From Candidatus Magasanikiibacteriota bacterium (GTDB taxonomy: Bacteria; Patescibacteriota; Patescibacteriia; Magasanikbacterales; GWA2-37-8), in the NCBI GenBank assembly GCA_963840935.1, contig CAWJAS010000001.1:384875-448874 (forward strand): DNA of 64,000 bases, in the 5' to 3' direction. The notes under the pieces are model-generated. The model had not been told where the DNA came from. It saw only the letters and a program-made list of their open reading frames with translations, and searched no databases. The translations under genes were made by a program, and so were the position numbers. Below, piece by piece: positions 2,038 through 48,299 of the stretch (position 1 is its first letter; the number at the start of each line of letters is the position of its first letter).

Positions 2038-2043
2038 TTTTAT

Positions 2044-6456: not shown

Positions 6457-6501
6457 AATATTCGATAATTTATTTTACCCTCCTAAAAAATCCTTGATTT
6501 T

Positions 6502-30971: not shown

Positions 30972-30984
30972 AATTTTTTATTTC

Positions 30985-31046
30985 CCTCTCCTTTATAAGG
31001 AGAGGGTTAGGGTGAGGTAAATTTGTTTCCCCCTCTTACAAAGAGG
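30985..31046. repeat. Two adjacent GC-rich perfect hairpins (CCCTCTCCTT-TATA-AGGAGAGGG and CCCCCTCTT-ACA-AAGAGGGGG), each followed by TTAGGG(G)(T)GAG
   Basis: Read directly in the lexA / Y-polymerase intergenic region; related motif GGGAAGAGGGTTGGGGTGAGG recurs at 38243-38262. Confidence 0.6.
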
Positions 31047-31064
31047 GGGTTAGGGGGAGTCGAA

Positions 31065-31637
31065 TTATACTCTATATTTCCTCACCATTCCCACCACCAC
31101 CGCGGCGATATTTAATTCCTCGGTCGGCACAATCGGGCGATAACGGCGGTTGGCCGGAGCGAGCATGATTTTTTGACCGCTTTTGCGAAAATATTTGAGC
31201 GTCCAAGCATGATCAACTTCAGCCACCACCACATCGCCTTCGCGTGGTTGGCGTCCGCGTTCAACAAGCACCAAATCACCCGGCATGATTCCGGCTTCAA
31301 TCATGGAGTCGCCCGTAACTTTCAGCATATAGGTTGCTTCTTTGCGATTGATTAAATATTCTTCCAAATTCATGGTGTCGCATAATTCTTCTTCAGCCGG
31401 AGTGGGGAAGCCGGCGGCGATGTCGCCCAATAATGGCAATTCCAAAAATCTGCGACCCGGGGCAAGCCGTCCGCCGTCATCACGGCGCAAAAAACCTTCG
31501 TCAGCCAGTTTGGCCACGATTTTGTGCACCGCGTTTGTTGATTTGAGCCCGGCTTCGGCCATAAATTCGCGGTAGCTGGGCAATCGGCGATGTCTTTTAT
31601 AAAATTTGGTGAAGGTTGCCAGGTAATTTTTTCCCAT
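31065..31637 (-). CDS. lexA: LexA repressor (S24 peptidase)
   Basis: N-terminal HTH; cleavage-site AG in LGDIAAGFP; S24 catalytic region GDSMIEAGIMPGDLVLVER...K. Confidence 0.9.
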   Translation of the reverse strand: MGKNYLATFTKFYKRHRRLPSYREFMAEAGLKSTNAVHKIVAKLADEGFLRRDDGGRLAPGRRFLELPLLGDIAAGFPTPAEEELCDTMNLEEYLINRKEATYMLKVTGDSMIEAGIMPGDLVLVERGRQPREGDVVVAEVDHAWTLKYFRKSGQKIMLAPANRRYRPIVPTEELNIAAVVVGMVRKYRV

Positions 31638-31696
31638 ATAATTAATAGTTGTGTATAATTAGCATTGCTCACTTCATTCCCATGTGGTAGTATAGT

Positions 31697-31708
31697 GAAC
31701 ATGTGTTC
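31697..31708. promoter_or_regulatory. Cheo-box-type LexA operator GAAC-N4-GTTC within the palindrome GTGAACATGTGTTCAC
   Basis: Located in the divergent intergenic region between lexA (minus) and the Pif1-like helicase gene (plus); matches the Gram-positive-type SOS box consensus. Confidence 0.6.
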
Positions 31709-31745
31709 ACCTTGTCAATGTGGATAACTTTACCCCCAAAAAATT

Positions 31746-33137
31746 ATGTACAAAAAATACGCCAAGAAAAAGAAAAAAGAAAAGGCCTATGTCAGCCGGC
31801 CGACCAAAGAAGACCCCAATCGTTTTGACCATTTAATAATTAACGATGAATGGCAGACGGTTCTTGACGCGCTTGAAAACAGTCCGGAAAATATTTTTAT
31901 CACCGGACGGGCCGGCACCGGCAAATCCACCTTGCTTGATTATTGGCGGGCGCAAACCAAACAAAATATTGTGGTGCTCGCGCCAACAGGCGTAGCGGCG
32001 CTTAATGTTCGCGGTCAAACCATTCATTCATTTTTTGTGTTTCATCCGGGTATTACTCCGGCTGATGTGCGCCGTTATCCCACAAAAAAAGACGGTGAAA
32101 GCATTTACAAAAAAATCGACACCATTGTGATTGACGAAGTTTCCATGGTCAGAGCCGACCTTCTTGATTGCGTGGATAAATTTATGCGCTTGAACGGCCG
32201 AGACAAAGGCAAAGCTTTTGGCGGAGCGCGTCTCGTTGTTTTTGGCGATTTGCACCAGCTTCCGCCCGTTGTCACCGAAGCTGAGCGCGAAGCGTTTTTT
32301 TCACTTTATCGCACGCCGTATTTTTTTTCCGCCAATGTTTTGTGCGACCGTCGTTTAATCCAAATGGATAATGATTTTATCAAATATGAATTAACAGAAA
32401 TTCATCGTCAAAAAGACGCCAATTTTATCAAGCTATTAAATCGCGTGCGCGACAATGAAGCCACGGCCGAAGACCTATCAGAGCTTAATCAAAGACATGA
32501 CCCGGAATTCATATTTGACGAAGACGATTACCGAATTTATCTCACTGCCACCAATTATGTGGCGGCAGAAATAAACAACGCTCGCCTTAATCGTTTGTCC
32601 GAAAAACCGCAAATTTTTAAAGCCGATAAGTACGGGCACTTTGACGACCGAGTTCATCCGACCGACGAAGTTCTGCAACTCAAAGTCGGCGCGCAAGTGA
32701 TGCTTATCAACAACGATTCGGCCAAGCGATGGGTCAATGGCACAATCGGTCGAGTGGCGGAATTAAAAAAAGACACCTACAACTTGCCAATCGTAAAAGT
32801 AAAATTATCGGACGGTGAAGTGGTGGAAGTGGAGCCGTTCACCTGGAAATCGCATCGCTATCATTTTAATGTTTCAGCGCAAAAAGTGGAAGCCGAAGAA
32901 ATCGGTTCGTTCACTCAATTGCCTATCAAATTGGCTTGGGCGGTAACTATTCACAAAGCGCAGGGCAAAACTTTTGACCGTGTGGCTTTGGATATCGGCC
33001 GTGGCGCCTTTGCTTCGGGTCAACTCTATGTGGCGCTTTCGCGCTGTACCTCGCTTGAAGGATTAACCTTGGTCGCTCCGTTAATGCCACGCGACATCAT
33101 TACCGACCCGGTGGTGGTGGAATTTTTGCGCGGATAA
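31746..33137 (+). CDS. Pif1/RecD-family 5'-3' DNA helicase
   Basis: IFITGRAGTGKST Walker A, VVLAPTGVAALNV, VIDEVSM Walker B, AVTIHKAQGKTFDRV C-terminal motif. Confidence 0.85.
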   Translation: MYKKYAKKKKKEKAYVSRPTKEDPNRFDHLIINDEWQTVLDALENSPENIFITGRAGTGKSTLLDYWRAQTKQNIVVLAPTGVAALNVRGQTIHSFFVFHPGITPADVRRYPTKKDGESIYKKIDTIVIDEVSMVRADLLDCVDKFMRLNGRDKGKAFGGARLVVFGDLHQLPPVVTEAEREAFFSLYRTPYFFSANVLCDRRLIQMDNDFIKYELTEIHRQKDANFIKLLNRVRDNEATAEDLSELNQRHDPEFIFDEDDYRIYLTATNYVAAEINNARLNRLSEKPQIFKADKYGHFDDRVHPTDEVLQLKVGAQVMLINNDSAKRWVNGTIGRVAELKKDTYNLPIVKVKLSDGEVVEVEPFTWKSHRYHFNVSAQKVEAEEIGSFTQLPIKLAWAVTIHKAQGKTFDRVALDIGRGAFASGQLYVALSRCTSLEGLTLVAPLMPRDIITDPVVVEFLRG

Positions 33138-33431: not shown

Positions 33432-33575
33432 AGATAGATTTTAGTGAACTAAGCTGCAAAGAAGGCCTCTGCAGAAATTCGACTAATTTCCACGTGGAAG
33501 CTTACTTTTTAGGTGTTTATTATAGCATAAAAATGGGGTTTTGTCAAGGGGGGCAACTAAAATATACCAATATTA

Positions 33576-33603
33576 TTGACATTCCTTCATAAAACTGTAT
33601 AAT
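33576..33603 (+). promoter_or_regulatory. Sigma-70-like promoter for the 33659 gene: TTGACA -N16- TATAAT
   Basis: Perfect consensus hexamers at 33576-33581 and 33598-33603; AGGAG RBS precedes ATG 33659. Confidence 0.5.
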
Positions 33604-33658
33604 CAAACCAAACGTTCATTACAAAAATACGGTAAAACACAGCAGAATAGGAGCAAAT

Positions 33659-34843
33659 ATGACAGGAATTGTAGCAAAGGTTCCGTGGGTAGAATTCGGT
33701 CATAAATTCAGGGAGACAGCGTTCGCTTTGATTAGGTGTGGAAATATTATTAGTTGGCCATTTTTTTCCAAAAAGGCCGGCAAGACCTACTGCGAATATA
33801 TGGCGGGTGAGTATGGCTTGGATATCGCGGATTTTTCCGGTGCCGTGGCCATGCTTGAAGCCTCTGACTTGTCTGATGGTTTGACTGAATTCGACATTTT
33901 GGTAGCGGATCTTTACGCCGGTCTTATCAAGGATGAGGTTCGGCCATCGCCTTTGGAGTTTATGGAAATTCTAGAAAAAACGATGAACCGACTCGAGCTT
34001 GGTACACCCGAACCGGAAGAGGATAAAGAGCCGGAGGGTGACATCGTTTTTAATGCGGTGTACGATGAGCAGTCTTTTTCTATAGCATGTTGCCGTTTTG
34101 TGGCAGACCACAACGGCCAGAAAATTTCTACTGAGCCGTTTTTTTCCCGGAATGCCGGCGATAGGATTATTATGAACATGAGAGATAATCTCAACATGTC
34201 GCGGGGTGCCATGAAGCGGATGGTTCGTGAACTCAACAGCAAGGGTTTGCCCATTCGAACAACCGAAATGGACTTGGCTCTCAGAAATTTTATCGCCTTT
34301 ACTCATCTTTGCAGAAGGTCAAAGCAGGCCAATAGACATTTGGAGACTTTGATTAAGGAAGATATGATGCTCAACCTTTTTGGGCCAAGGGGTTGGGGGA
34401 TTGACCAAGCGCCGGTATTGGATTTGTCTTTTGCTAACGGTAAACAAGGTATGATCGTCGGTCATGTTGACGACGGCGCTCCTGCTGATGTTTCGGAAGA
34501 TATTTGTCTTATGATTGAAAACAGCGTTGTGCTGTACGGCGTGCTCAAATGTGGCAATGTTCAGACTCAACCCTTCTTTTCCAAGCACTGCGCTTGGAAT
34601 TGTCTTACAGCCATGGTTTCTCAGTACGAGTTGAATGAAGACGATGTTGCCAAGACAGAGGTTGCTATTAATATGCTGGATATTTTTCCAGAAGAACCGG
34701 TCAATTATGATCGCGCGGCTTCCAGATTCATTCAGTTGTGTATAAAAACGAATCGGTCCAATCAAGCCTTTAACCACATATACAAACTGATAGAACTAGG
34801 TATCTTTTTAGATATGTTCGGCGACGAAAGCGATCCGTCGTAG
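33659..34843 (+). CDS. Hypothetical protein (394 aa) with internal duplication, no recognisable family; GC-richer than surroundings
   Basis: Repeats CGNIISWPFFSKKAGKTYCEYMAGEYGLD and CGNVQTQPFFSKHCAWNCLTAMVSQYELN; strong promoter, RBS and terminator. Confidence 0.5.
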   Translation: MTGIVAKVPWVEFGHKFRETAFALIRCGNIISWPFFSKKAGKTYCEYMAGEYGLDIADFSGAVAMLEASDLSDGLTEFDILVADLYAGLIKDEVRPSPLEFMEILEKTMNRLELGTPEPEEDKEPEGDIVFNAVYDEQSFSIACCRFVADHNGQKISTEPFFSRNAGDRIIMNMRDNLNMSRGAMKRMVRELNSKGLPIRTTEMDLALRNFIAFTHLCRRSKQANRHLETLIKEDMMLNLFGPRGWGIDQAPVLDLSFANGKQGMIVGHVDDGAPADVSEDICLMIENSVVLYGVLKCGNVQTQPFFSKHCAWNCLTAMVSQYELNEDDVAKTEVAINMLDIFPEEPVNYDRAASRFIQLCIKTNRSNQAFNHIYKLIELGIFLDMFGDESDPS

Positions 34844-34879
34844 CCGTTAAATTAATTCGTTCATTTTTTGAAAGTTTTG

Positions 34880-34909
34880 TGCCTGCGGGGTAACCGCAGG
34901 CGTTTTTTT
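34880..34909 (+). terminator. Rho-independent terminator of the 33659-34843 gene
   Basis: GCCTGCGG-GGTAA-CCGCAGGC followed by TTTTTTTT. Confidence 0.65.
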
Positions 34910-34943
34910 TAAAAAACCCCCACAACTTTTTAAAGCAGTGGGG
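34910..34943 (-). terminator. Terminator for the minus-strand gene 35014-35223
   Basis: CCCCCAC...GTGGGGG hairpin with a T-run on the minus strand (A-run 34910-34915 on plus). Confidence 0.55.
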
Positions 34944-35013
34944 GATTGTTTGCCCTTTGCGGGGGCAAAAATTGTCGAGCAAAATGATTTGCTGAATGAA
35001 CGGAAGGGGCGAA

Positions 35014-36266: not shown

Positions 36267-37208
36267 ATGGAAAGACCAAGAGAGTTTGTGCCACTCGACC
36301 GCCTAAAACCGCGCCAATCACCGGAAAAAAGAAAATCTCCGGAATTTTTTGCCAACCAACTTTTGGGAATGATGAAAAAAATTTCCGAACAAGTGAATAA
36401 AGAAGTTGAGAAAAAATACGGCTTGAATAATTTTTTGAATTCCGACGGCTCACTCAACATGAACGGCTATGCCGAGGGCCCACACACAGCCAAACAAGTC
36501 AAAGAAGATAAAGAATGGGTGCGCGAAAGGGAAGTGGAATTCAGTCGAGCCAAAGTCCCGCAAGTGCAATTATTTTACCGCGAGAAATTCGGCGACAAAA
36601 CCGAAGAAGCAATTGTGGAGCGTTGGCGACAAGAAAAAGCCAAAAACAAAAACGGATTGATGGAAATGGCGGTCACCGGATTGTTCCACAAAATTTTGAA
36701 AGATGATTTTTTGGTGGTGCGCGCTTCGGCCTATGATGATTACAACAAAAATGGCGGAGTGGACAATATTATTGTGAACAAAAGCACCGGCGAGGCGATT
36801 TGCGCTTTTGACGAAGTGCATGAAGGCGGAGCCGGCGAGCGCACGGGCGAGAAGATTAAAAAAATTAAAGAAGTGGCGGGTCGGGGCGGAGCCAGAGTGC
36901 GCTATGGTATCAAATTGGAAAACAACAAGCTCAAACGCGCCGAAATGACCACATTGCCGGTTTTCTATTTGGGATTGAAAAGCGCGGAGCTGGAAGAATT
37001 GCTCGCGAATATGAATTGCGACCCGGACAGCAAAGTGACAAACGCGGAATACCAGGTCTTTGCCAAATTGACGGCATCGCTCAAAGAACAAAAACAAATT
37101 TTGGATGGAACCAACGCCACGCCGGCGGTCAGAAACAAGTTGGAAACATTCGAGGGCTTGCTCGCGGAGTTCGAGGAACGGTGCGAGGGTTTTGATATGG
37201 CGGCGTAA
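36267..37208 (+). CDS. Hypothetical protein (313 aa), no recognisable family; GC-richer
   Basis: ORF only; charged, Lys/Glu-rich. Confidence 0.45.
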   Translation: MERPREFVPLDRLKPRQSPEKRKSPEFFANQLLGMMKKISEQVNKEVEKKYGLNNFLNSDGSLNMNGYAEGPHTAKQVKEDKEWVREREVEFSRAKVPQVQLFYREKFGDKTEEAIVERWRQEKAKNKNGLMEMAVTGLFHKILKDDFLVVRASAYDDYNKNGGVDNIIVNKSTGEAICAFDEVHEGGAGERTGEKIKKIKEVAGRGGARVRYGIKLENNKLKRAEMTTLPVFYLGLKSAELEELLANMNCDPDSKVTNAEYQVFAKLTASLKEQKQILDGTNATPAVRNKLETFEGLLAEFEERCEGFDMAA

Positions 37209-37231
37209 GGGGTAGCCATTATTTTTTATCT

Positions 37232-38200
37232 ATGGCCAAAAAAAGAACAAACAAAAATCAAATCGTAATTTATCAATCAAAAAATGGTGGGATTGAAATT
37301 AAAAAAGACATAAATCTGGATACTCTTTGGGCTACTCAGGTGGATATTGGTAAATTATTTGAAAAAGACCAATCGGTAATTTCGCGTCATATCAAGGGTA
37401 TTTTCAAAGATAAAGAAATAGACCAAAAAAGCAATATGCAAAAAATGCATATTGCAAATTCGGATAAACCGGTTGTTTTCTATAGTTTGGACATTATTTT
37501 AGCCGTCGGTTATCGCGCTAATTCAAAACGAGCGATTGAATTTCGCAGATGGGCAACTAAAATTTTGAAAGCGCACATCACCAAGGGCTTCACCATTAAC
37601 CCCAAAGTAATAAAAAACAATTACGCCGAATTTCAAAAAGCGATAGAAAATATTAAACAATTATTACCCGCGAGTTCAAGTGTTGACCGCGAAAGCGTTT
37701 TGGAATTGGTTTCCGCTTTTGCCGACACCTGGCTGTCTCTTGAAGCGTATGATAAAGACGATTTGATCGGCAAGGGCGAAACAAAAAAATCAGTGGACTT
37801 AACAGCCAAACAATTGCATGAAGCGCTTGTTCAATTCAAAAATGAATTGCAAAAGAATAAAACAATATCAAAAATCTTTGCGCTGGAAAAACAAAGTGGT
37901 TCCGTTGATGGCATTGTCGGTAATATCATGCAGTCATTCGGGGGTAAACAATTTTATGCGACCGTGGAAGAAAAAGCGGCTCATCTTTTGTATTTTATGG
38001 TCAAAAATCATCCTTTTACAGACGGCAACAAGCGTTGCGGAGCTTTTGCTTTCGCCTGGTTTTTGAAAAAGGCCGGTTTGCTTGAATCCCGCCAAATCAC
38101 TTCTCCGGCATTAACCGCGTTGACTATTATTGTGGCGGAAAGCGCGCCCAAACAAAAAGAAAAAATTATTCGCCTGATTCTTCAATTGTTGAAAAAATAA
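37232..38200 (+). CDS. RhuM-family N-terminal domain fused to a Fic/Doc (death-on-curing-type) domain
   Basis: N-terminus IVIYQSKNGGIEI...FYSLDIILAVGYRANSKRAIEFRRWATKIL (RhuM-like); C-terminus HPFTDGNKRCG matches the Doc/Fic core motif HxFx(D/N)GNKR. Confidence 0.75.
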   Translation: MAKKRTNKNQIVIYQSKNGGIEIKKDINLDTLWATQVDIGKLFEKDQSVISRHIKGIFKDKEIDQKSNMQKMHIANSDKPVVFYSLDIILAVGYRANSKRAIEFRRWATKILKAHITKGFTINPKVIKNNYAEFQKAIENIKQLLPASSSVDRESVLELVSAFADTWLSLEAYDKDDLIGKGETKKSVDLTAKQLHEALVQFKNELQKNKTISKIFALEKQSGSVDGIVGNIMQSFGGKQFYATVEEKAAHLLYFMVKNHPFTDGNKRCGAFAFAWFLKKAGLLESRQITSPALTALTIIVAESAPKQKEKIIRLILQLLKK

Positions 38201-38207
38201 CCCTCCT

Positions 38208-38262
38208 CTCCTAAACAAGGCGAAGTCCCGCATTCATTGCGGGAAGAGGGTTGGGGTGAGGT
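38208..38262. repeat. GC-rich hairpin element related to 30985-31046 (contains CCCGCATTCATTGCGGG and GGGAAGAGGGTTGGGGTGAGG)
   Basis: Read directly; lies immediately 3' of the Doc-like gene. Confidence 0.5.
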
Positions 38263-38280
38263 CTGGGGGTCAAAAAATTT

Positions 38281-38308
38281 CAACACTTCACCCTAGGGTG
38301 AAGTGTTT
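38281..38308. repeat. 26-28-nt perfect palindrome AACACTTCACCCTAGGGTGAAGTGTT flanked by an A-run and a T-run (bidirectional terminator-like); copy 1 of 2
   Basis: Read directly; a near-identical copy lies at 43479-43508. Confidence 0.65.
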
Positions 38309-38367
38309 GTTTTGGCTTGAATTATTGATGATCTGGGGGTATGATATATTAGATTAAATATTCAGGC

Positions 38368-38997
38368 ATGTCATACATAAAACGAAAAATCGCAAAATAT
38401 GATTTTATTCATAGTATTGTAGTGACCGTTTTAGTAATGGGCGCATTACTTTTTGGCAAATATTTTTTTACTTCTGATTGGCATTCGTTTCTTTATTACA
38501 TTCAGATTTTTATTTTGGCAGTTGGCTCGGTTATTTTGATAGAATTTGTTTTGCGTCTTGTTAATAAAGCCAAAAATTATGAAAAAGGCAAAGAGGGCGA
38601 AGATTATGTTGAAAAAATATTAAAAAATATTTCGAATTTGGAATACACAAGAAATTTTAGAACAAAAAATGGTGATTTGGATTTTTTGGTGAAAAAGAAT
38701 GGAAAATATTATGGTCTAGAAGTAAAAAATTGGTCAGGCAGAATAACTTATTGCGCGGAAGATGATATTATAGAAAAAAATGGATATCCGCAGAATGTTA
38801 TAAAACAAGTAAAAACTGCTTCAAAAAAAGCGCAACAAAAATTGGCAAAAGAAAATCCCGCAATAACATTTGTGCAACCGGTAATAGTTTTTTGCGACCA
38901 TGTGGCATGTGTGGATATGCCGGGTAATATTATCAAATACGATAATATGGAGGTTTATGCGATTGGGTCGAGTCAGATAAATAATTTTTTTAGATAA
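38368..38997 (+). CDS. NERD (nuclease-related domain) protein with N-terminal TM helices
   Basis: GKEGEDYVEKILK...FRTKNGDLDFLVKKNGKYYGLEVKNW fits the NERD PD-(D/E)xK-like core; two N-terminal hydrophobic helices. Confidence 0.7.
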   Translation: MSYIKRKIAKYDFIHSIVVTVLVMGALLFGKYFFTSDWHSFLYYIQIFILAVGSVILIEFVLRLVNKAKNYEKGKEGEDYVEKILKNISNLEYTRNFRTKNGDLDFLVKKNGKYYGLEVKNWSGRITYCAEDDIIEKNGYPQNVIKQVKTASKKAQQKLAKENPAITFVQPVIVFCDHVACVDMPGNIIKYDNMEVYAIGSSQINNFFR

Positions 38998-39001
38998 AAA
39001 T

Positions 39002-42000
39002 ATGACAAATAATTGCGTATCTGAATTTGTAAAATCAGTAATAGAAAAATATAAATCAGGTCAAGCCAAAGAGCATGCTTATCGTCCGGCTTTAGAAAAG
39101 TTGTTCGGCGACATCTCTGGCCTTAATGTGATCAACGACCCCAAACGGAGCGAATACGGTGCGCCGGATTTTGTGTTTATGAAAGGAAAAGTGGCCGCCG
39201 CCTATGCCGAAGCCAAAGATATAGGCGTATCGCTTGGCGAAACAGAAAAAGGTGAACAACTTGCTCGTTATTTTGGCTATTCCAATTTAATTCTCACGGA
39301 TTGTTTAGAGTTTCGTTTTTTTCGCAACGGTCAAAAATACGAAACAGTGAAGATCGCCGAAATAAAGGACGGTGAAATAGTGGCGGACGAAAACAATTTT
39401 TCGCATTTAGAAGATACAATTAAAGAATTTATCAATGAAGCCAAAGAACCGATAAAATCCGGCGCCGTACTCGCCAAAGTCATGGCCGGCAAGGCGCGTC
39501 GCATTCGAGACAACATCAAAAAGTATCTGAACGAAAAAAACGAAGTTAAGAACGCGAGTTTATTGTCAATATACAATGCTATAAAAAATTTGTTACTCAA
39601 TGATTTGGATTATGAAAAATTTGCAGACATGTACGCGCAGACGGTTGTTTATGGTTTGTTTGTCGCTCGTTTTCACGACCAAACACCCGACACTTTCTCT
39701 CGGCAAGAAGCGCGCGATTTAGTGCCGAAATCCAATCCATTTTTACGTAAATTTTTTGACCATATCACCGGCGAGGATTTTGATGAACGCATCGGCTTTA
39801 TTGTTACGGAACTGTGTGAGGAATTCGTGCACGCCGATGTTCGCGCGATAATAAACAATTATTACAAAGTGGAAAAAGACGATAGCCGCGACCCCATTAT
39901 TCATTTCTACGAAGATTTTTTGCAGGAATATGATCCGGCGGAACGCAAGAAAATGGGTGTGTTTTATACGCCATTGCCGGTGGTACGATTTATCGTGCGC
40001 GCAATAGACGAAATTTTAAAAATCGAATTTGGCTTGAGCGGACTTGTCGATGCTATGAAAGAGGACATTGTTAAGGAGTCTCAGGGTAAAAAATACAAAG
40101 ACAAGATCCATAAAGTTCAAATTCTAGATCCAGCCACCGGCACAGGGACATTTTTGAATGAGGTCATTAGGCAAATCAAAGAATCGTTTAAGGGCCAGGA
40201 GGGTCGTTGGCAGAGTTATATCAAAGAGGACTTAATCCCGCGGCTTTATGGTTTTGAATTAATGATGGCGCCGTACACTATCGCGCATTTAAAAATCTCT
40301 TCTTTTTTGAAAGAGAACGGTGTTCATATCGGCGACGAACGGATCGGTCTGTATCTCACAAATTCTCTTGAAAAAGGCGACAAAGAACACGACACCCTTT
40401 TTGATTTTGGTTTGGCCAAAGCAATTTCTGATAAATCCAGAAAAGCTAACATTATTAAAGTTAAGGTGCCGATAATGGTAGTTTTAGGAAATCCGCCGTA
40501 TTCTGGTGAGTCTAGTAATAATTTTGAGAGTGCGAATAGATTAGTAGACAAATATAAATTTGAGCCAGGAGGCTTACTTAAATTAAAAGAAAAAAATCCA
40601 AAATGGTTAAATGATGATTATGTTAAGTTTATTGCCTTTTCAGAAAATTTAATAGATAAAAACGGTGAAGGCGTTTTAGGGTTTATTACTAATCATAGTT
40701 ATCTGGACAATACAACCTTTAGAGGAATGCGTTGGGAACTTGCACAGACTTTTGATGAAATTCATATAGTAGATCTTCACGGAAATGTTAAGAAAAAAGA
40801 AAAGCACCCAGATGGAAGTGTAGACGAAAATATTTTCGGTATACAGCAGGGTGTAGCTATTATAATTGCTGTGAAAAAGAAAAATAAAGGCGCTAAAAAG
40901 GATGCCAAGGTTTTCGTCTCTGATTTGTACGGTACGAAAAAGGTTAAATTTAATGCATTGAATAATGACGAAATAAAATATACAGAAATTAAATTAGATC
41001 AGCATCAGTACTATTTTGTAAACAAAAATTTTCAAGGAAAAGATGAATACGATAAGGGGTTTTTTGTAAATGATTTGTTTATTGTTTCTAATGTTGGCAT
41101 TGTCACTTCGGCTGATAGTATTTTGGTGGCACCAACTAAAGAGGAATTACTCAAACAATTATATAGCGCTAAAGAGGAAAATAGCGCTAAGAAAACAATT
41201 CAAAAGTTGAAAAATGAATCTATCGAAGAAAGAAAAATGCAAAAAGTAACTTATAGGCCATTTGATAATCAGTATGTTTATTATGAACCAAATGTTATTG
41301 AACGTGCCCGGTATAAAGTGATGAAAAATTTTATAGCCAAAGATAATGTTGGTCTAATATTTATGAGAGGTGGTATAGAGGTAAAATCCTCACCAATTTT
41401 CCTTTCTAAATATATTAGCAAATCCAGGAGCTGGTCGCGTCCAGGAATGCAAGGTGTCAAATCATTAGCACCACTTTATTTATATATGGAAGATGGATCA
41501 AAAATTCCAAATTTCAATAAAGAGATCGTAAAGCAAATAGAAAAAATTATTGGGCAAGCGACTCCCGAAAACATATTTGATTATATATACGCGATTTTGA
41601 ACAGTCCGAGTTATGGTGAAAAATATAAAGAGTTTTTGAAAATAGATTTTCCGCGCGTGCCGTACCCGAAAGATGAAAAACAATTTTTTGATTTAGCAAA
41701 ATTGGGCGAGGAATTGCGCCATTTGCATTTGTTTGAGAGTCCAAAAATAAATAATTTTATCACGACCTATTCAGAACCCGGCGATAATTTGGTTGAAAAG
41801 GTTATTTATAATGAAGAAAATGTGTTTATTAACAAAGCACAATTTTTTGGCGATGTTCCTAAAATCGCCTGGGAATTTTACATCGGTGGCTATCAACCTG
41901 CCCAAAAATGGCTCAAAGATCGCAAAGGTCGCAATTTATCAAACTCCGATATTGAACATTATCAAAAAATTATCGTGGCGCTTGTTGAGACAGGTAGAAT

Positions 42001-42034
42001 AATGAAAGAAATTGATAAAATTAAATATGAATAA
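39002..42034 (+). CDS. Type IIG restriction-modification enzyme (fused PD-ExK endonuclease + N6-adenine methyltransferase + specificity domain), MmeI/Eco57I-like
   Basis: N-terminal APDFVF...EAKD (PD-ExK); FYTP motif I; VLGNPPYSG motif IV (NPPY); 1010 aa single polypeptide. Confidence 0.85.
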   Translation: MTNNCVSEFVKSVIEKYKSGQAKEHAYRPALEKLFGDISGLNVINDPKRSEYGAPDFVFMKGKVAAAYAEAKDIGVSLGETEKGEQLARYFGYSNLILTDCLEFRFFRNGQKYETVKIAEIKDGEIVADENNFSHLEDTIKEFINEAKEPIKSGAVLAKVMAGKARRIRDNIKKYLNEKNEVKNASLLSIYNAIKNLLLNDLDYEKFADMYAQTVVYGLFVARFHDQTPDTFSRQEARDLVPKSNPFLRKFFDHITGEDFDERIGFIVTELCEEFVHADVRAIINNYYKVEKDDSRDPIIHFYEDFLQEYDPAERKKMGVFYTPLPVVRFIVRAIDEILKIEFGLSGLVDAMKEDIVKESQGKKYKDKIHKVQILDPATGTGTFLNEVIRQIKESFKGQEGRWQSYIKEDLIPRLYGFELMMAPYTIAHLKISSFLKENGVHIGDERIGLYLTNSLEKGDKEHDTLFDFGLAKAISDKSRKANIIKVKVPIMVVLGNPPYSGESSNNFESANRLVDKYKFEPGGLLKLKEKNPKWLNDDYVKFIAFSENLIDKNGEGVLGFITNHSYLDNTTFRGMRWELAQTFDEIHIVDLHGNVKKKEKHPDGSVDENIFGIQQGVAIIIAVKKKNKGAKKDAKVFVSDLYGTKKVKFNALNNDEIKYTEIKLDQHQYYFVNKNFQGKDEYDKGFFVNDLFIVSNVGIVTSADSILVAPTKEELLKQLYSAKEENSAKKTIQKLKNESIEERKMQKVTYRPFDNQYVYYEPNVIERARYKVMKNFIAKDNVGLIFMRGGIEVKSSPIFLSKYISKSRSWSRPGMQGVKSLAPLYLYMEDGSKIPNFNKEIVKQIEKIIGQATPENIFDYIYAILNSPSYGEKYKEFLKIDFPRVPYPKDEKQFFDLAKLGEELRHLHLFESPKINNFITTYSEPGDNLVEKVIYNEENVFINKAQFFGDVPKIAWEFYIGGYQPAQKWLKDRKGRNLSNSDIEHYQKIIVALVETGRIMKEIDKIKYE

Positions 42035-42287
42035 ACATGAAAAAATATATCCGACACAAGGATATTCCGATAAAGAATTAATTACTCAGGTTGGTGATTA
42101 TGCGAATCAGGTAGTTGGTGATCCGAATAAAAAAACAGAAATACTTATGCAACATTTTGCAAAGGCGAATGTCGGAGTCGCGGAGTTGCAAAGACGCTAC
42201 ACTAAAAGAGCTTTATATATTGCCTTTTTTGCTTTGTTGCTAAGTGTCGCATCCATTATACTGTCTTTATTTGATAAATTTTTTTAA
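42012..42287 (+). CDS. Small protein with C-terminal TM helix
   Basis: ORF only; overlaps the R-M gene end by 23 nt. Confidence 0.3.
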   Translation: MIKLNMNKHEKIYPTQGYSDKELITQVGDYANQVVGDPNKKTEILMQHFAKANVGVAELQRRYTKRALYIAFFALLLSVASIILSLFDKFF

Positions 42288-42299
42288 AATATTAATTTT

Positions 42300-42653
42300 A
42301 TGCCTCTCACCCTCGTCATCCTATTCGCCATCATCATCATCCTCGCCGGATTTAAAATCTATACCCTTAAGCGCGAGGTGCTTGCCTTGAGCAGAGAGCT
42401 TGAAGATGAAAAAAAGGAATTTGCCGAAGTTGCCGTGTACAACGAAAGGCAAAAGGAAATCAAAAATCAGAACAAGGCAAAAGTGATGGCTTTGTTTGAA
42501 CACCAAAAAAAGATTGCCAACAATGATGTGCAAAAAGAATTGGGCATTTCGAGCGCCACCGCCTTCCGCTATTTGGAGGAATTGGAGAAGGAAGGTAAAT
42601 TAAAGCAGAATAATAAATTTGGGAGGTTTGTTTATTATACGAAAGCAAGTTAA
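42300..42653 (+). CDS. N-terminal TM plus C-terminal winged-helix DNA-binding protein
   Basis: Hydrophobic N-terminus; KKIANNDVQKELGISSATAFRYLEELEKEGKL is an HTH. Confidence 0.5.
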   Translation: MPLTLVILFAIIIILAGFKIYTLKREVLALSRELEDEKKEFAEVAVYNERQKEIKNQNKAKVMALFEHQKKIANNDVQKELGISSATAFRYLEELEKEGKLKQNNKFGRFVYYTKAS

Positions 42654-42686
42654 TTGAAATATTGCAATATTATAAAAATATGAATT

Positions 42687-43301
42687 ATGCTTGTTTTTAT
42701 TGACGACTCTGGCGATCCGGGCTTTAAATTAAACAAAGGTTCCACCAGATATTTTCTAATCGCTCTCGTAATTTTTGAAGATGAATTAGAGGCGGAAAAA
42801 ACAGCAGTCGCGATTAAGGAGCTTAAAAGGGGATTAAAATTTCCTGATGATATGGAATTTAAATTTTTTAAATCAAGCAAAGATGTCAGAATGAAATTTT
42901 TATCGACAGTAAAAAAGTTTAATTTTTATTATAGATGCTTGGCGATAGATAAGATGGTAATTAAAAGCGATGAATTAAAAAATAACAAAAGCTCATTTTA
43001 CAGTTATGCTATTAAAACCGTATTAAAGCATAGTAATGCCATTAATAACGCCAAGGTCAAAATTGATGGAAGCGGAGACAGGGTTTTCCGAAAAAATTTT
43101 TTGGCATATTTAAAAAAACAATTAAACAGTGGAGATAAAAAAATAATTAAAAATTGTAAATTGGTCGATTCAAAAGGCAATCAACTTATCCAATTGGCTG
43201 ATATGATTGCTGGTAGTGTTCGGCGGTCTTTTGAAGCGAATGATTATATTTATAGGAATCTTATAAAAAATAAGGAGAATGATGTTTGGAATTTTAAATA
43301 A
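42687..43301 (+). CDS. DUF3800 family protein
   Basis: N-terminal MLVFIDDSGDPG and C-terminal QLADMIAG are the hallmark DUF3800 segments. Confidence 0.7.
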   Translation: MLVFIDDSGDPGFKLNKGSTRYFLIALVIFEDELEAEKTAVAIKELKRGLKFPDDMEFKFFKSSKDVRMKFLSTVKKFNFYYRCLAIDKMVIKSDELKNNKSSFYSYAIKTVLKHSNAINNAKVKIDGSGDRVFRKNFLAYLKKQLNSGDKKIIKNCKLVDSKGNQLIQLADMIAGSVRRSFEANDYIYRNLIKNKENDVWNFK

Positions 43302-43478
43302 AAAACAACCCCTTACGGGGTGTTTCCAACCATGCATTCTATACTGGTTGTCCCAGTCACGCCACCGTCCGGTGACAGTTCGATATGCAGGTTTAGGTAT
43401 TTCCATTATAGCATAAAACTCGTAAAATTGGAATAGGTTTGTGTGTATAACTATATATTTATTTAATTTTAGCCAAAA

Positions 43479-43508
43479 ATCAACACTTCACCCTAGGCTG
43501 AAGTGTTG
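43479..43508. repeat. Palindrome CAACACTTCACCCTAGGCTGAAGTGTTG, copy 2 of the 38281-38308 element (one central mismatch)
   Basis: Read directly; A-run upstream. Confidence 0.6.
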
Positions 43509-43582
43509 AAATTAGTTAAATTTACATATAATTTTCGAGAGGAATGTGCAAAAAATGCACAATCCAAAAAATCAAACGTAAA

Positions 43583-43800
43583 AGAAATAAAAAAGTCCTG
43601 GCTGGACATTGCACAAGTCGTTTTTGACACGCGCCCTCTCGTCCAGCCAGAACAAAGGAATATATCATAAAACGAGCTATTTGTCAATATGAAATAAAAA
43701 AGTCCTGGCTGGGACAGTATTTATATCGTGTCAAACAGAACTACCTTCGTCCAGCCAGGACAGAGAAGTATATGATAATATAATTATTTTGTCAATATTA
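43583..43800 (+). repeat. Two tandem ~110-nt structured units, each a 13-bp inverted repeat (GTCCTGGCTGG(G)AC ... GTCCAGCCAG(A/G)AC) enclosing a ~33-nt divergent loop, followed by the conserved tail TATTTTGTCAATAT(G/T)AAATAAAA; candidate small RNAs
   Basis: Read directly; unit 1 at 43583-43690, unit 2 at 43692-43800; immediately followed by a strong terminator. Confidence 0.55.
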
Positions 43801-43804
43801 AATA

Positions 43805-43836
43805 AAACCCCGCAATCGCGGGGCTTCATTTTTTTT
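43805..43836 (+). terminator. Rho-independent terminator directly after the tandem structured repeats
   Basis: CCCCGC-AATC-GCGGGG then CTTCATTTTTTTT; no protein gene upstream on this strand. Confidence 0.6.
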
Positions 43837-43893
43837 AAGCTTGTCCAAAGGCAATAAAAGTGGGATAATATATAAAATTAGCTATAAAAATCT

Positions 43894-45345
43894 ATGCTAA
43901 CAAAATCCAATTTTAATCTATATATCAAATGCCCGATTTGGTTGTGGTTGAAAATTCATCGACCGGATTTGTTGCCGGCAGATTCGCTGGATACATTGCG
44001 CCGGTTTGCGGAGGGCAGGGAGGTGGATGTGCTGTCGCGCCAAGTTTATCCGGGTGGAGTTGAAGCAAAAGGTTTCAATAAAGAGGGTTTCAAAAACACA
44101 AAAGAGCTTTTGAGTGGCACGGCCAAAGTGATTTACCAGCCCACGATTATGACCGAGTTTTTGACTTGCCGGGCGGATATTTTGACACGCGATGGCGAGA
44201 AGTGGGATTTGCGCGAAGTAAAAATGACAACTAAAGTAAAACCGGAGCATATTTATGATGTTGGTTTTCAGCGGATTTGTTTTGAAGAGGCGGGCGTAAA
44301 AATCGGCCGAACTTTTTTGGTCCATTTGAATAATGAGTATGTTCGACATGGCGCGATTGAACCGGAAAAATTATTTATCAGTGAAGATATTACCGACGAA
44401 GTTTTGGAAAAAATGGATGAAATAAAAGAAGAAATAAACAAGGCGCTTGCGATGTTTGAATGGCGGGAAGCGCCGGACAAGCGTTTGATTGAATTGTGTG
44501 CCACTCCCAAAAATTGCGAGTATATCAAATATTATTGTGAGGGTGTGGGCGGTGTGGCGGAAATGGCCGAGCAAATTGACCCCAAAAAATTATTGATTTT
44601 GTTGAGGCGGGGGATTGTGGCGCCGGAAAATTTGTCTGATGATTTGCTTGATCGGATCGGGTACGCGCCGGAAGAGCCGTTCACAAAAATAAACGCGCCG
44701 GTCATTCGGCGGGAATTGGAAAAGCTGGAATATCCGTTGTATTTTTTTGATTATGAAACTTATGGTGTGGCCATCCCTTTGTTTGATGGCACGCGTCCGT
44801 ATCAGGCCATCCCTTTCCAATATTCTTTGCATGTGCAAGACAAGCCCGATGGTGAAATTAAACACTTGGAATTTTTGGCCACAAAGTTTGAGAATCCGGT
44901 GCCGGAATTGCTCGCGCAATTGAAGCGAGACATTGGGCCGGTTGGCAGTGTGATTGTGTGGTTCAAAAATTTTGAAAAGACGCGCAATGAAGAAATGGCA
45001 AAAATGATGCCCGAGTACGCTGATTTTTTGGATGATGTGAATGAACGGATTTTTGATTTGTATGATATCTTTAAAATAAAGAATGAGATGTATGCTGACA
45101 GCGAGTTTCAAGGTAGCGCTTCGCTGAAGTCGGTTTTGCCTGTTCTTTGCCCCGAACTTTCATACAAATCTTTGGCCATTCAAGAAGGCGGGACGGCTTC
45201 GGCCAGTTGGCCGGTTTTGACCAGTGAAAAAACGCCGGAAGCCGAGCGAGAGAAATTAAAAAATGACATGTTGGCGTATTGCGAGCGCGATACCGAAGCG
45301 ATGGTTGGCATTCTTGAGAAGTTGAAAAGGGAGATTGAAAATTAA
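43894..45345 (+). CDS. DUF2779 family protein (predicted RecB/Cas4-like PD-(D/E)xK nuclease with C-terminal Cys cluster and exonuclease-like domain)
   Basis: N-terminus MLTKSNFNLYIKCPIWLWLK typical of DUF2779; D..E.K triad (RADILTRDGEKWDLREVK); CEYIKYYCEG. Confidence 0.65.
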   Translation: MLTKSNFNLYIKCPIWLWLKIHRPDLLPADSLDTLRRFAEGREVDVLSRQVYPGGVEAKGFNKEGFKNTKELLSGTAKVIYQPTIMTEFLTCRADILTRDGEKWDLREVKMTTKVKPEHIYDVGFQRICFEEAGVKIGRTFLVHLNNEYVRHGAIEPEKLFISEDITDEVLEKMDEIKEEINKALAMFEWREAPDKRLIELCATPKNCEYIKYYCEGVGGVAEMAEQIDPKKLLILLRRGIVAPENLSDDLLDRIGYAPEEPFTKINAPVIRRELEKLEYPLYFFDYETYGVAIPLFDGTRPYQAIPFQYSLHVQDKPDGEIKHLEFLATKFENPVPELLAQLKRDIGPVGSVIVWFKNFEKTRNEEMAKMMPEYADFLDDVNERIFDLYDIFKIKNEMYADSEFQGSASLKSVLPVLCPELSYKSLAIQEGGTASASWPVLTSEKTPEAEREKLKNDMLAYCERDTEAMVGILEKLKREIEN

Positions 45346-45420
45346 TGCAGTTGTGGTCTTTATGTTTCATGAATAGGTCTGGCACTGTGCAAAGTTAAGA
45401 AAATATTAAATGTTATTTTC

Positions 45421-47907
45421 ATGGATTTAATATATTTATTGATCGTAATTGCCGTAGTATTGGGTTTATTTATAGTACGCCTTGTTTATATTCACCAAAG
45501 AGATAATGAACTATTGTTAATTTTAAATGATTATAGAGACGATTTCGAACAAGCACTAAAGGAATTCGATGAATTATTATCGAATTCTTTTTATTTATCA
45601 GACATGCAATATCAATTATGGCGTGGCACGCACAATCATTTATACGAGTTAATTCCTACAAAATTTGAAAAAATAAAAAATAAGAATCCCCTGATTTTGA
45701 AAGTACGAACCTTTTTAGATTGTTATTTGCGAGGTCGAGAATTATTTATTGACCCGCATAATACTAATTTTGTTCAGAATGAAATCCCAATCATTAAGCA
45801 TGTATTGAATGAAAAGAAAATTCCTTGTAATAACGACCAATTAAACGCGATTGCATCTGATGAAAATAATACCTTGCTCGTTGCGGGTGCCGGTACCGGA
45901 AAAACCACAACGATAATTGGCAAACTGGCTTATTTAATTGAACGGCTGGATGTTCAGCCGAAAGATATTTTGCTATTATCCTTTACTGGTCGCGCCGTTA
46001 ATGAGTTATCAGAAAGAGTCATAAAAAAATTCGGTAATAAAAATTTGGAAGTCCGCACTTTCCATAGCTTCGGCTTGTCTGTAATAGGGCAGGTTCGCGG
46101 TAAAAAGCCTGAGATGGCTTTTGACGGCGACAGTTTAAAACGCAGAATTTTTTTGAATAACAAATTTAATAATTTATTATCGGACAAATCATACATATGG
46201 AATGTTTTGCAATATTTTGCTTATTATTTTAAACCGATTAATGCCGAGCCTGTATTTGAAAACCTTGATGAATATTATCAAAAGAATTTAGTAAAAGAAT
46301 ATATTTCTTTAAAAAATGAAAAAATGAAAAGCCAGCAGGAGGTGATGATTGCCAATTATTTGTTTATAAACGGCATTAATTATATATATGAAGCGCCGTA
46401 CAAGCATGAAACGGCGACAAAATTTTTTCGCCAATATAAGCCGGATTTTTATTTGCCTGATTTTGATATTTATCTAGAACATTTTGGCATCAATAAAAAT
46501 GGCATGGTTCATTTTACTCGCAACGAAGAACAGAATTATAAAGAATCTATTAAATATCGTGCTGATATGGAATGGAAACGCAACCTGCATAAGCAGTATC
46601 AAACTAAATTAATTGAAACCTATAGTTATGATTTTTTTGAAAATGATTGGGAAAAAATTTTAAAGGAGAAATTATTATCGGAAAAAGTTTTGATAAAAAG
46701 CATGAGTACAGAGGAAATAATTTCGATTATCAAAAAGGAAAATTATGATATTAAGAAAATAGCGGAATTGTTTGCGACATTTTTGGATTTAAGCAAATCA
46801 AGGTGTTACACGCCGGAAATATTGAGAGAAAAAATTATAGAAAGGCAGAGCCCGAGAGAGATGGCTTTTTTGAAAATCTTCGTACCTCTATATGAGGAGT
46901 ACGAAAATTATATTAAGGAATCCGGCACTGTTGATTTTCACGACATGCTTCTTGAAGCGGCGAATTATATTTCTGATGGTCGTTATCCGATTAATTTTAA
47001 GTATGTTATTATCGATGAATTTCAGGATTTTTCAGAGAGTAAATCAAAATTAATCAAGGCAATTTGCGCGCAAAATCCGTTTGTAAAATTATTTTGCGTG
47101 GGAGATGATTGGCAATCTATTTTCCGTTTCGCTGGTTCAGATGTTTCTTTAATGTCCGAATTTCAAGATAATTATGGATTTACAAGAAAAAATCAGCTTG
47201 CTGTCACAAATCGATTTAATAATCAATTGGCAATTATTTCTAATCAGTTTATTTTGAAAAACCCCAGTCAAATTCATAAAGAAGTTTGTTCCGGTACTAT
47301 TGTAAATTTTGATCCTATTAAAATAATACATGAAAAAAATTATAATGATACCATTTATTTTTTGCGTGAGATATTGAGTGATTTAAATAAACAAGCAAAG
47401 TGCGCGAATAAGAAAGTTTCTGTTTTACTTTTAGGGCGTTATAGACATAACGCACCTGAAAATTGGCAAAAATTCAATAACGAGTTTGGTAATTTATCAG
47501 TCGAATTTCTTACTATACACGCCGCTAAAGGTTCTGAGGCGGATTATGTTATAATACTTGATGTAAATTCCGGTAGGCTTGGTTTTCCCTCGGAGATATC
47601 CGATGACCCTATTTTGGATATTGTTTTAAGCAAGCGTGAAGGATATCCGAATGCTGAGGAAAGGCGCTTGATGTATGTTGCCATGACCCGAGCGAAGCAA
47701 AAGGTTTTTATTATGACAAAAGATGGCGCTGAATCAATATTTGTGATGGAATTGGAGCGGTCGAATAAGAAAAATAAGGAAAAAATAATTTGTCCGGAAT
47801 GCGGTGGTAATATGGTTCGTCGCAAAGGTCCTTATGGGGTATTCCTTAGTTGTAAGAATTTTCCAAAATGTAAATACAAAATAAATATTAGGCGCTATAA
47901 TGTATGA
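45421..47907 (+). CDS. UvrD/Rep-family SF1 helicase with N-terminal TM, inserted nuclease-like domain and C-terminal topoisomerase-type C4 zinc ribbon (helicase IV-like)
   Basis: LVAGAGTGKTTTIIGKLAYLI Walker A; VIIDEFQDF Walker B; HAAKGSEADYVII; LMYVAMTRAKQ; CPECGGNMVRRKG...CKNFPKCKY. Confidence 0.8.
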   Translation: MDLIYLLIVIAVVLGLFIVRLVYIHQRDNELLLILNDYRDDFEQALKEFDELLSNSFYLSDMQYQLWRGTHNHLYELIPTKFEKIKNKNPLILKVRTFLDCYLRGRELFIDPHNTNFVQNEIPIIKHVLNEKKIPCNNDQLNAIASDENNTLLVAGAGTGKTTTIIGKLAYLIERLDVQPKDILLLSFTGRAVNELSERVIKKFGNKNLEVRTFHSFGLSVIGQVRGKKPEMAFDGDSLKRRIFLNNKFNNLLSDKSYIWNVLQYFAYYFKPINAEPVFENLDEYYQKNLVKEYISLKNEKMKSQQEVMIANYLFINGINYIYEAPYKHETATKFFRQYKPDFYLPDFDIYLEHFGINKNGMVHFTRNEEQNYKESIKYRADMEWKRNLHKQYQTKLIETYSYDFFENDWEKILKEKLLSEKVLIKSMSTEEIISIIKKENYDIKKIAELFATFLDLSKSRCYTPEILREKIIERQSPREMAFLKIFVPLYEEYENYIKESGTVDFHDMLLEAANYISDGRYPINFKYVIIDEFQDFSESKSKLIKAICAQNPFVKLFCVGDDWQSIFRFAGSDVSLMSEFQDNYGFTRKNQLAVTNRFNNQLAIISNQFILKNPSQIHKEVCSGTIVNFDPIKIIHEKNYNDTIYFLREILSDLNKQAKCANKKVSVLLLGRYRHNAPENWQKFNNEFGNLSVEFLTIHAAKGSEADYVIILDVNSGRLGFPSEISDDPILDIVLSKREGYPNAEERRLMYVAMTRAKQKVFIMTKDGAESIFVMELERSNKKNKEKIICPECGGNMVRRKGPYGVFLSCKNFPKCKYKINIRRYNV

Positions 47908-48299
47908 TTAAAATCCCACCATCCGAACTCCGCGTCACATTTGCTCGGTCATCGGGTGCGGGCGGGCAGAATGTGAATAAGACATCGACCAAAGCGACTG
48001 TGCATTGGCCGGTGGGGCGTTCGCGGGTTTTGTCTGACGATGAAAAAGCGAGGGTGCGGGTGAAATTGACGAGCCGGATTAATTCAAACGACGAGGTGGT
48101 GGTAATGTCGGAAGAAGAGAGAACGCAACCGCAAAATCGCGCCTTGGCCGTTGCTCGGTTGCAGGCGCTCGTTGTCCGCGCTTTGCATGTGCCAAAAAAG
48201 CGCAAAGCGACCCGACCGACCTTGGCTTCCAAATTACGCCGATTGGAATCCAAAACACGTCGGTCGCGGGTGAAGGCAGGAAGACGTCAAACCGAATAA
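47904..48299 (+). CDS. arfB: Alternative ribosome-rescue factor ArfB (peptidyl-tRNA hydrolase, YaeJ family)
   Basis: GAGGQNVNKTSTKA GGQ motif; basic C-terminal tail; ~131 aa; ATG overlaps helicase stop (ATGTATGA). Confidence 0.85.
   Translation: MIKIPPSELRVTFARSSGAGGQNVNKTSTKATVHWPVGRSRVLSDDEKARVRVKLTSRINSNDEVVVMSEEERTQPQNRALAVARLQALVVRALHVPKKRKATRPTLASKLRRLESKTRRSRVKAGRRQTE

Follow-up and report, generated by a model that had tools for sequence, protein, structure and literature searches.

A variable site with restriction–modification and toxin-type genes beside a nuclease–helicase pair in a Candidatus Magasanikiibacteriota genome

The stretch of DNA analysed here (the window) comprises 64,000 nt from Candidatus Magasanikiibacteriota and contains, at 37232-47907, seven consecutive plus-strand genes that a first-pass annotation had described as a single defence or stress island. 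We read this interval, with a probability of about 0.7, as a recombination hotspot in a candidate phyla radiation (CPR) genome, lying between a gene for a 313-amino-acid (aa) protein and arfB, where independently exchanged defence modules abut a resident nuclease–helicase pair. Comparison with related genomes places the variable part at 37208-43888, with genes for a RhuM-Doc fusion, a NERD nuclease with two transmembrane (TM) helices (2TM-NERD), a single-chain type IIG restriction–modification (R-M) enzyme, a TM winged helix-turn-helix (wHTH) protein and a DUF3800 protein; a DUF2779 nuclease and a helicase IV-like protein make up the putative resident pair.

CPR bacteria have tiny genomes, mostly without CRISPR, and what is known of their resistance to phages and foreign DNA comes mainly from gene inventories. 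With well-defined limits and contents that vary among close relatives, the hotspot provides an anchor for mining such genomes for defence genes. The recurring operon of NERD and IIG genes could be a simple accessory-nuclease variant of R-M, and the window also holds a compact CPR example of the association between DUF3800 genes and noncoding RNAs noted since 2017, with its own terminator and a promoter read by hand. The components come from known families, where they are unremarkable, and do not overturn current views; what novelty remains is in the NERD-IIG operon and the RNA cluster beside DUF3800. Domains were searched for using Pfam, NCBIfam and PADLOC profiles and RNAs using Rfam models, and the NERD protein was modelled with AlphaFold2 (AF2); the activities discussed below are predicted from these data.

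The site between the 313-aa gene and arfB

All seven open reading frames (ORFs) were confirmed, with short gaps between them, and hidden Markov model scans backed every domain call of the first-pass annotation; the motifs it had quoted (HPFTDGNKRCG, the NERD core, NPPY plus PD-ExK, and the D-E-K triad of DUF2779) are likewise present. The conserved left flank is the 313-aa protein (36267-37208, plus strand), with homologues at 86% identity in locus L071, 70% in L003 and 61% in L002, and without a match in Pfam, NCBIfam or PADLOC. The conserved right flank is arfB (47904-48299, plus strand; NCBIfam ArfB 137.8 bits vs. a cutoff of 100, with the match beginning at profile position 10), whose start codon overlaps the stop codon of the helicase gene (ATGA, 47904-47907).

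What lies between these flanks changes from one relative to the next. In L003 they are only ~1.3 kb apart, enclosing one distant 2TM-NERD gene and one other gene, and all seven window genes are absent. The closest relative is L071, where UmuC, UmuD, PIF1, the 313-aa protein and a HAD protein are 85-97% identical at the aa level; here the flanks enclose ~10.9 kb of other genes, including an IIG gene of the unrelated MmeI family. DNA homology between the window and L071 ends at 37203, resumes over 38368-39007 (the NERD ORF, 81%) and then only from 47922, inside arfB; within the hotspot, the two share the NERD ORF and nothing else. The cargo of L002 consists of a LexA-S24-methyltransferase fusion, a DndB-like gene, a fragmented DUF2779 gene and a DUF559 gene, and that of L001 of a RhuM-Fic gene (50%), a TdeIII-type R-M system, a DpnI-like gene with a methyltransferase, and a Fic gene. 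The same flanks thus enclose different defence-type cargo in L003, L071, L002 and L001. Because homology to L071 breaks off and the cargo of the relatives differs, the site is truly a variable hotspot, in which R-M and toxin genes are enriched.

Base composition also sets the interval apart: GC content is 0.335-0.407 within it and 0.42-0.47 in the immediate flanks, rising from ~0.34 to ~0.46 across the helicase/arfB boundary. A mobile genomic island was considered and rejected, since no integrase or transposase is present. There are no flanking direct repeats, the sole notable repeat being an internal pair of 28-nt palindromes, and no tRNA serves as a target at the site, with the closest tRNAs at 25.9-26.8 kb.

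Several observations sit uneasily with a defence hotspot next to resident genes. Neither an integrase or transposase (26.8-54.6 kb) nor a clear target duplication was found that would explain mobility. Most of the hotspot genes of L071 match no defence model, so that the term "defence hotspot" rests on a subset of the genes, and in the window PADLOC recognises only the IIG enzyme and, as a candidate, PDC-S23. The helicase gene, moreover, has the lowest GC content of the interval, which is ill at ease with the label "resident".

Some further features of the region and its relatives deserve mention. In a scan of species-representative genomes, the nearest relatives by ArfB are metagenome-assembled genomes (MAGs) of Candidatus Magasanikbacteria/Patescibacteria at 65-81% aa identity, the 81% homologue being in a Magasanikbacteria MAG; an exact-protein look-up returned no identical protein on record for the IIG enzyme or ArfB. 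ArfB, a GIY-YIG protein and their neighbours are 65-78% identical to the window in the L001, L004 and L007 MAGs, whose "uncultured Gammaproteobacteria" labels look doubtful. Upstream of the site, minus-strand genes for UmuC and a UmuD-like (S24/LexA-type) protein diverge from a PIF1-family helicase gene (29673-33137), an arrangement kept in L003 and L071 at 75-97% aa identity, which makes them a stable SOS/translesion-type cluster beside the hotspot. A 1.4-kb segment (33550-34956) is absent from the otherwise collinear L071 and represents a second small indel adjoining the hotspot; the 394-aa ORF within it (33659-34843) has no match in Pfam, NCBIfam or PADLOC. At the hotspot of L002, the fusion protein (1643-3097, minus strand) joins a LexA DNA-binding domain, an S24 peptidase and an N6_N4-methyltransferase, and a SAM riboswitch (4761-4861, plus strand; 67 bits) lies upstream of a 137-aa ORF of no known function.

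A NERD gene upstream of type IIG genes

The 2TM-NERD nuclease (38368-38997, plus strand) matches Pfam NERD at 2.2e-12 (47.9 bits vs. a threshold of 22.1). Two N-terminal hydrophobic segments form a membrane hairpin ahead of the PD-(D/E)xK domain, whose catalytic residues (E78, D105 and E118-x-K120) are invariant in 25 relatives. The AF2 model (pLDDT, the predicted local distance difference test score, 88) shows a pair of long helices at the N-terminus besides an alpha/beta domain; its top matches in the PDB are weak (E 2e-3 to 1e-1), though all are PD-(D/E)xK nucleases, namely Bax1, BstEII, McrC, Can2 and Hjc. Lys/Arg-rich segments border both hydrophobic helices, and by the positive-inside rule the nuclease domain would face the cytoplasm. 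The family is large, with 393 representatives at E<=1e-30 and 3889 at E<=1e-10, most of them 225-250 aa long.

Directly downstream lies the gene for the type IIG/IIL R-M enzyme (39002-42034, plus strand; 1010 aa), which PADLOC recognises as REase_MTase_IIG with 891 bits. Its Pfam matches are Type_ISP_C (1.5e-73, 248 bits, residues 726-1002), N6_Mtase (1.3e-11) and Eco57I. From the N-terminus, it is laid out as a PD-ExK nuclease (P55-D56...E70-A-K72), a gamma-class N6-adenine methyltransferase (DPATGTGTF 376-384, NPPY 497-500) and a target-recognition domain (TRD), the enzyme thus possessing its own recognition domain in the form of Type_ISP_C; these motifs are kept in the L073 homologue. No helicase or ATPase domain was found in the 1010-aa protein by Pfam or PADLOC, and no other methyltransferase or S-subunit gene lies within 36-49 kb. 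The closest PDB sequences are LlaBIII, 7LO5 and LlaGI, with LlaBIII and LlaGI aligned over the methyltransferase and TRD parts only. Such an enzyme would recognise a site in which it methylates an adenine, and incoming DNA that lacks the modification would be cut some distance away.

The first-pass annotation had proposed that NERD and the R-M enzyme might form a two-gene system, and the comparison lends this pairing some support: a NERD gene lies 2-5 nt upstream of an IIG gene in four loci (the window, L071, L072 and L073), the NERD proteins being 47-100% identical. In the window the partner is Type_ISP_C/DrdV-like. L071 pairs a 77% identical NERD with a canonical MmeI-family enzyme of 902 aa that shows no identity to the window enzyme beyond the methyltransferase motifs, and L072 a 74% identical NERD with an Eco57I-like enzyme of 1001 aa (26% to the window enzyme, in the motifs only). 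In L073 the NERD is just 47% identical, and the IIG gene, incomplete at the contig end, is 73% identical to that of the window over 516 aa. The identities of the two partners are therefore discordant in both directions, and the IIG genes come from three unrelated families. What is conserved is the junction (TAA, 2-5 nt, ATG) together with a promoter-like region upstream of NERD.

The data support an operon of NERD and IIG, in which NERD is probably co-transcribed with, and translationally coupled to, the IIG gene. The conserved junction and discordant partners are what one would expect of a functional operon whose specificity genes can be exchanged. The NERD protein might then be a co-effector degrading DNA at the membrane; that it is dedicated to the IIG enzyme in this role is a tentative reading, which we put at somewhat under even odds. 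A broader proposal, that the 2TM-NERD subgroup is the dedicated, interchangeable partner of IIG/IIL enzymes and hence a form of two-component R-M not yet described, appears rather doubtful. Under such an arrangement, the NERD gene would supply the promoter, the translational coupling and a membrane-located nuclease, and the IIG gene would be swapped between unrelated families.

The strongest competing explanation, to which we assign close to an even chance, is that the adjacency is merely positional. The 2TM-NERD gene would have long resided at the locus with a housekeeping function, such as that of a membrane nuclease by which a nucleotide-scavenging CPR cell takes up or turns over DNA, with IIG cassettes inserted or replaced directly downstream of it. 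The family is uniform in size as well as large, and the retention of the NERD ORF alone between the window and L071 is what one would expect of a resident anchor gene. Distant 2TM-NERDs (17-25% identity in the family alignment, 25-31% in local alignments) are also solitary among housekeeping genes: one occupies the same locus in L003, another follows PIF1 in L084, and elsewhere the neighbours are lspA/ComM/FtsK, dNK, or an unknown gene and Fic. These solitary genes count against a dedicated partnership, as do three further points: the four NERD-IIG loci may represent one chromosomal site in related genomes, two of the four are short contigs without flanks, and IIG cassettes might just land behind a NERD gene that was already there.

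A purely positional link is harder to reconcile with other features of the pair. NERDs linked to IIG genes stand apart as a subgroup (47-100% mutual identity vs. 17-25% to the rest), lacking a C-terminal extension and differing from other 2TM-NERDs in their core motifs. The 2-5-nt stop-to-ATG coupling is conserved with three unrelated IIG families, the partner identities diverge in both directions, and in L072 the NERD gene is preceded by GmrSD rather than by the usual flank gene.

The nuclease–helicase pair and the remaining cargo

The sixth gene (43894-45345, plus strand) encodes a protein that joins a Cas4-like PD-ExK nuclease, bearing a Cys cluster, to DUF2779 (Pfam 4.3e-39, 134 bits). It possesses D95 and E108-x-K110, as well as motifs resembling those of DEDDy exonucleases (FFDYET and YCERD). 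A role in CRISPR adaptation was considered and rejected: the Cas_Cas4 match of the N-terminus (20.3 bits) is under the threshold of 22.7, and no cas gene, CRISPR repeat family or tandem array was found nearby.

The seventh gene (45421-47907, plus strand) encodes a membrane-anchored, helicase IV-like helicase of superfamily 1 (Pfam UvrD-helicase 1.7e-49, UvrD_C, Zn_ribbon_Top1 9.4e-14), with Walker A at 156-163, a PDF...EH insert at 339-356, a CxxC...CxxxxC zinc ribbon at 791-817 and one N-terminal hydrophobic anchor. Against NCBIfam DNA helicase IV (PRK11054) it scores 407.2 bits, under the equivalog cutoff of 543, which indicates a related family member and not the Escherichia coli equivalog. 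There are 1747 full-length relatives at E<=1e-10, mostly in CPR genomes; nearly all of the best 120 are ~820 aa long, carry the zinc ribbon and bear the source name "DNA helicase IV". The insert (KS..E..IAN..Y.YE..Y..Y.PDF.L..EH) is conserved in 104 aligned relatives and the anchor is present in 89/111. The combination of UvrD motifs, nuclease-like insert and zinc ribbon that had been singled out in the first-pass annotation is therefore real, yet typical of a 1747-member family. PADLOC GajB profiles also match the helicase, at up to 151 bits; a Gabija system was rejected, as PADLOC found no GajA (ATPase-Toprim) among the neighbours and the helicase IV score is 407 bits.

In L079, the DUF2779 (74%), helicase (67%), arfB (80%) and HAD (68% aa identity) genes occur in the same order as in the window. 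At the corresponding position, L002 possesses a DUF2779 homologue (6239-7694, 74% DNA identity) that is split into four short ORFs, evidently a decaying gene, with no helicase behind it. In the more distant CPR locus L081, a 60% identical helicase is found near arfB, DUF333, CorA (60%), a 242-aa NERD gene and a RhuM gene, and an SNase-family nuclease precedes it in place of DUF2779 (5439-8481), so that the pairing of a nuclease with helicase IV may be a conserved theme. The DUF2779 and helicase genes are best read as a resident nuclease–helicase pair for DNA processing, syntenic with arfB. They would have been inherited with arfB, and a role in DNA repair or processing seems more likely than one in phage defence.

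One might ask whether the whole cluster, together with the neighbouring UmuCD and PIF1, is a module for DNA uptake, repair or stress rather than for anti-phage defence. We think this unlikely. CPR bacteria depend on external nucleotides, UmuC, UmuD and PIF1 are conserved immediately upstream, three of the proteins (NERD, wHTH and the helicase) carry membrane anchors, and the helicase IV and DUF2779 families are widespread, all of which would suit such a module. It does not account for an IIG enzyme whose nuclease and methyltransferase motifs are intact and which matches an R-M profile very strongly, for RhuM-Doc and DUF3800 families linked to defence and mobile elements, or for five left-hand genes that vary among close relatives, where other R-M or toxin genes take their place.

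There is a very slight chance that one horizontally acquired seven-gene defence island, with Gabija-like or Cas4-like roles for the helicase and DUF2779 protein, underlies the shared strand, the short gaps, a GC content under that of the immediate flanks, the GajB matches and the absence of all seven genes between the L003 flanks; this explanation appears largely refuted by homology to relatives that is mosaic gene by gene and by the synteny of DUF2779-helicase-arfB-HAD in L079 at flank-like identities, and further opposed by the far better helicase IV score, the mostly CPR distribution of the helicase family and the lack of GajA, cas gene or CRISPR array nearby and of an integrase. Of the island first proposed, the left five genes stand as cargo of a variable site, whereas DUF2779 and the helicase belong to a conserved block; synteny of the kind seen in core genes, which would weaken an island interpretation, was found for these two and not for the left five.

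Returning to the hotspot cargo, the RhuM-Fic/Doc fusion (37232-38200, plus strand; Pfam Virulence_RhuM 1.3e-18, Fic 2e-11) is separated by 24 nt from the upstream 313-aa gene. Its Doc-type motif HPFTDGNKRCG lies at aa 260-270 (38009-38041) and fits the consensus HxFx(D/N)(A/G)NKR as HPFTDGNKR (260-268). The protein matches PADLOC PDC-S23 at 334 bits, over residues 7-321 vs. profile positions 3-324 of 327; PDC-S23 is a predicted candidate, and a literature search found no paper naming it or reporting its test. The score against TIGR01550 (Doc) is 32.1 bits, under the cutoff of 38.65, and no small ORF for a Phd-type antitoxin adjoins the gene. The 50% identical homologue in L001 sits directly upstream of the type II R-M system. 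We infer a toxin-type effector, and because Doc-family enzymes phosphorylate EF-Tu, it could back up the neighbouring R-M system as an abortive or second-line arm. Directly after its stop codon, a G+C-rich stretch (38201-38275) with the nested complementary runs CCCTCCTCTCC...CCCGCATTCATTGCGGG...GAGGGTTGGGG may be a structured 3' element; it has no match in Rfam.

The membrane-anchored winged-helix protein (42300-42653, plus strand; 117 aa) matches Pfam HTH_IclR and HTH_24 at ~1e-5, has one N-terminal hydrophobic segment (residues 1-25) and is probably a regulator. The idea that it forms a two-gene system with DUF3800, which had also been put forward, was rejected: only one homologue was found (56%, L072), and its neighbours, downstream of the NERD-IIG pair, are a Fic gene and a gene for a 226-aa protein that matches no family, with no DUF3800 gene alongside.

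The DUF3800 gene itself (42687-43301, plus strand; Pfam 1.1e-15, 59.1 bits vs. a threshold of 21) also gives a weak match to PADLOC PDC-M04A. The protein has an N-terminal DDSG (the "DE" motif reads DD) and a C-terminal QLAD at 169-172 (QxxD). DUF3800 domains also occur in type VII retrons and beside Cas12a2/a3 and Cas13 systems. An RNase H-like fold has been reported or predicted for the family (PMC7736814, PMC10910872), and Weinberg et al. (2017, PMC5737381) described eleven unrelated RNA motifs that are found with DUF3800 genes, on either strand. No DUF3800 relatives were found in viral contigs; in phage genomes, the only match (24.5%) is in one Ralstonia phage deposited under two accessions.

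One of these RNAs is present in the window. The DUF3800-IX RNA (Rfam RF02968; 43324-43393, minus strand), overlooked in the first-pass annotation together with other small-RNA-like units, lies in the 593-bp gap after DUF3800, 23 nt past its stop codon on the opposite strand, and matches the full model (1-67) at 46.3 bits vs. a gathering score of 36.8. The predicted fold reproduces its three helices, and it has its own minus-strand terminator (43321-43308). An extended -10 promoter (TGcTATAAT, ~43408-43416) was read by eye; a promoter scan gave no such site. None of nine related loci has a DUF3800 RNA. The window thus holds a complete example of a DUF3800 gene plus RNA in a CPR genome, in which a nuclease of RNase H-like fold would be accompanied by an RNA transcribed convergently from its own promoter, and the RNA might bind or control the nuclease.

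The same gap contains two tandem units of 107/108 nt (43584-43807, minus strand), each consisting of a promoter, a ~62-nt hairpin and a T-run. The promoters (TTGACA-17-TATATT or TATACT) agree with the consensus at 11/12 positions, and the hairpins share a conserved 13-14-bp stem around a divergent interior of ~33 nt (fold z-scores -6.5 and -4.6). The units match no Rfam family. That DUF3800, the DUF3800-IX RNA and the two hairpin RNAs constitute an RNA-controlled or RNA-programmed nuclease has a slim chance of being right, less than the reading of NERD as a partner of IIG.

A further minus-strand terminator lies at 43509-43480. Of the 28-nt palindrome CAACACTTCACCCTAGG(G/C)TGAAGTGTT(G/T) there are exactly two copies in the 64 kb (0 expected by chance). 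The copies, at 38281-38308 (an A-run, hairpin and T-run) and 43481-43508, both look like bidirectional terminators and bracket a 5.2-kb block from NERD to the DUF3800-IX RNA; they could be the edges of a cassette, or else a bidirectional terminator that has been used twice. Neither the hairpin interiors, the stem pattern nor the palindrome has a match in viral contigs or in any related locus compared.

Comparison with known systems

Like the IIG (IIL) enzymes of the MmeI/DrdV type, the window enzyme combines a nuclease, an N6-adenine methyltransferase and a target-recognition region in one chain. It differs from MmeI in falling under the Pfam MmeI_Mtase threshold (26.2 vs. 27 bits) and in a C-terminus that matches Type_ISP_C instead, from type ISP enzymes in having no helicase-like motor, and from MmeI/DrdV-type enzymes in that its gene is preceded by a 2TM-NERD gene that is probably co-transcribed with it.

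PrrC-EcoprrI is a case of a latent second-line nuclease tied to R-M. A co-effector role has been proposed for standalone NERD nucleases that border Dnd modification systems (PMC10853773), and the window likewise has a small NERD protein of restriction endonuclease fold beside a modification-dependent restriction system. In contrast to both, the window NERD has a two-helix membrane anchor, is encoded upstream in the same putative operon, 2-5 nt from the IIG start, and belongs to a type that stays put while the IIG family changes.

The helicase finds its best family match, over the motor domains, in E. coli-type DNA helicase IV (HelD, PRK11054). It differs in its membrane anchor, PD-ExK-like insert and Top1-type zinc ribbon, traits common to most of its ~820-aa relatives, and in being paired with a DUF2779 nuclease in the window and L079 and with an SNase nuclease in L081.

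RhuM-like domains fused to Doc and located in R-M loci have been proposed as the protein-targeting arm of a multi-level defence (Anantharaman et al. 2013, PMC3710099). The window has the same domain order with an R-M gene alongside; unlike the described loci, it has no PrrC/HEPN partner.

Finally, the window has a combination of DUF3800 gene, RNA and Rho-independent terminator that has been described for several of the DUF3800-I to -XI RNA motifs (PMC5737381, RF02968). It differs in its CPR host, in an RNA that runs convergently to the gene from the opposite strand, and in the addition of two promoter-bearing hairpin units and a preceding TM-wHTH gene.

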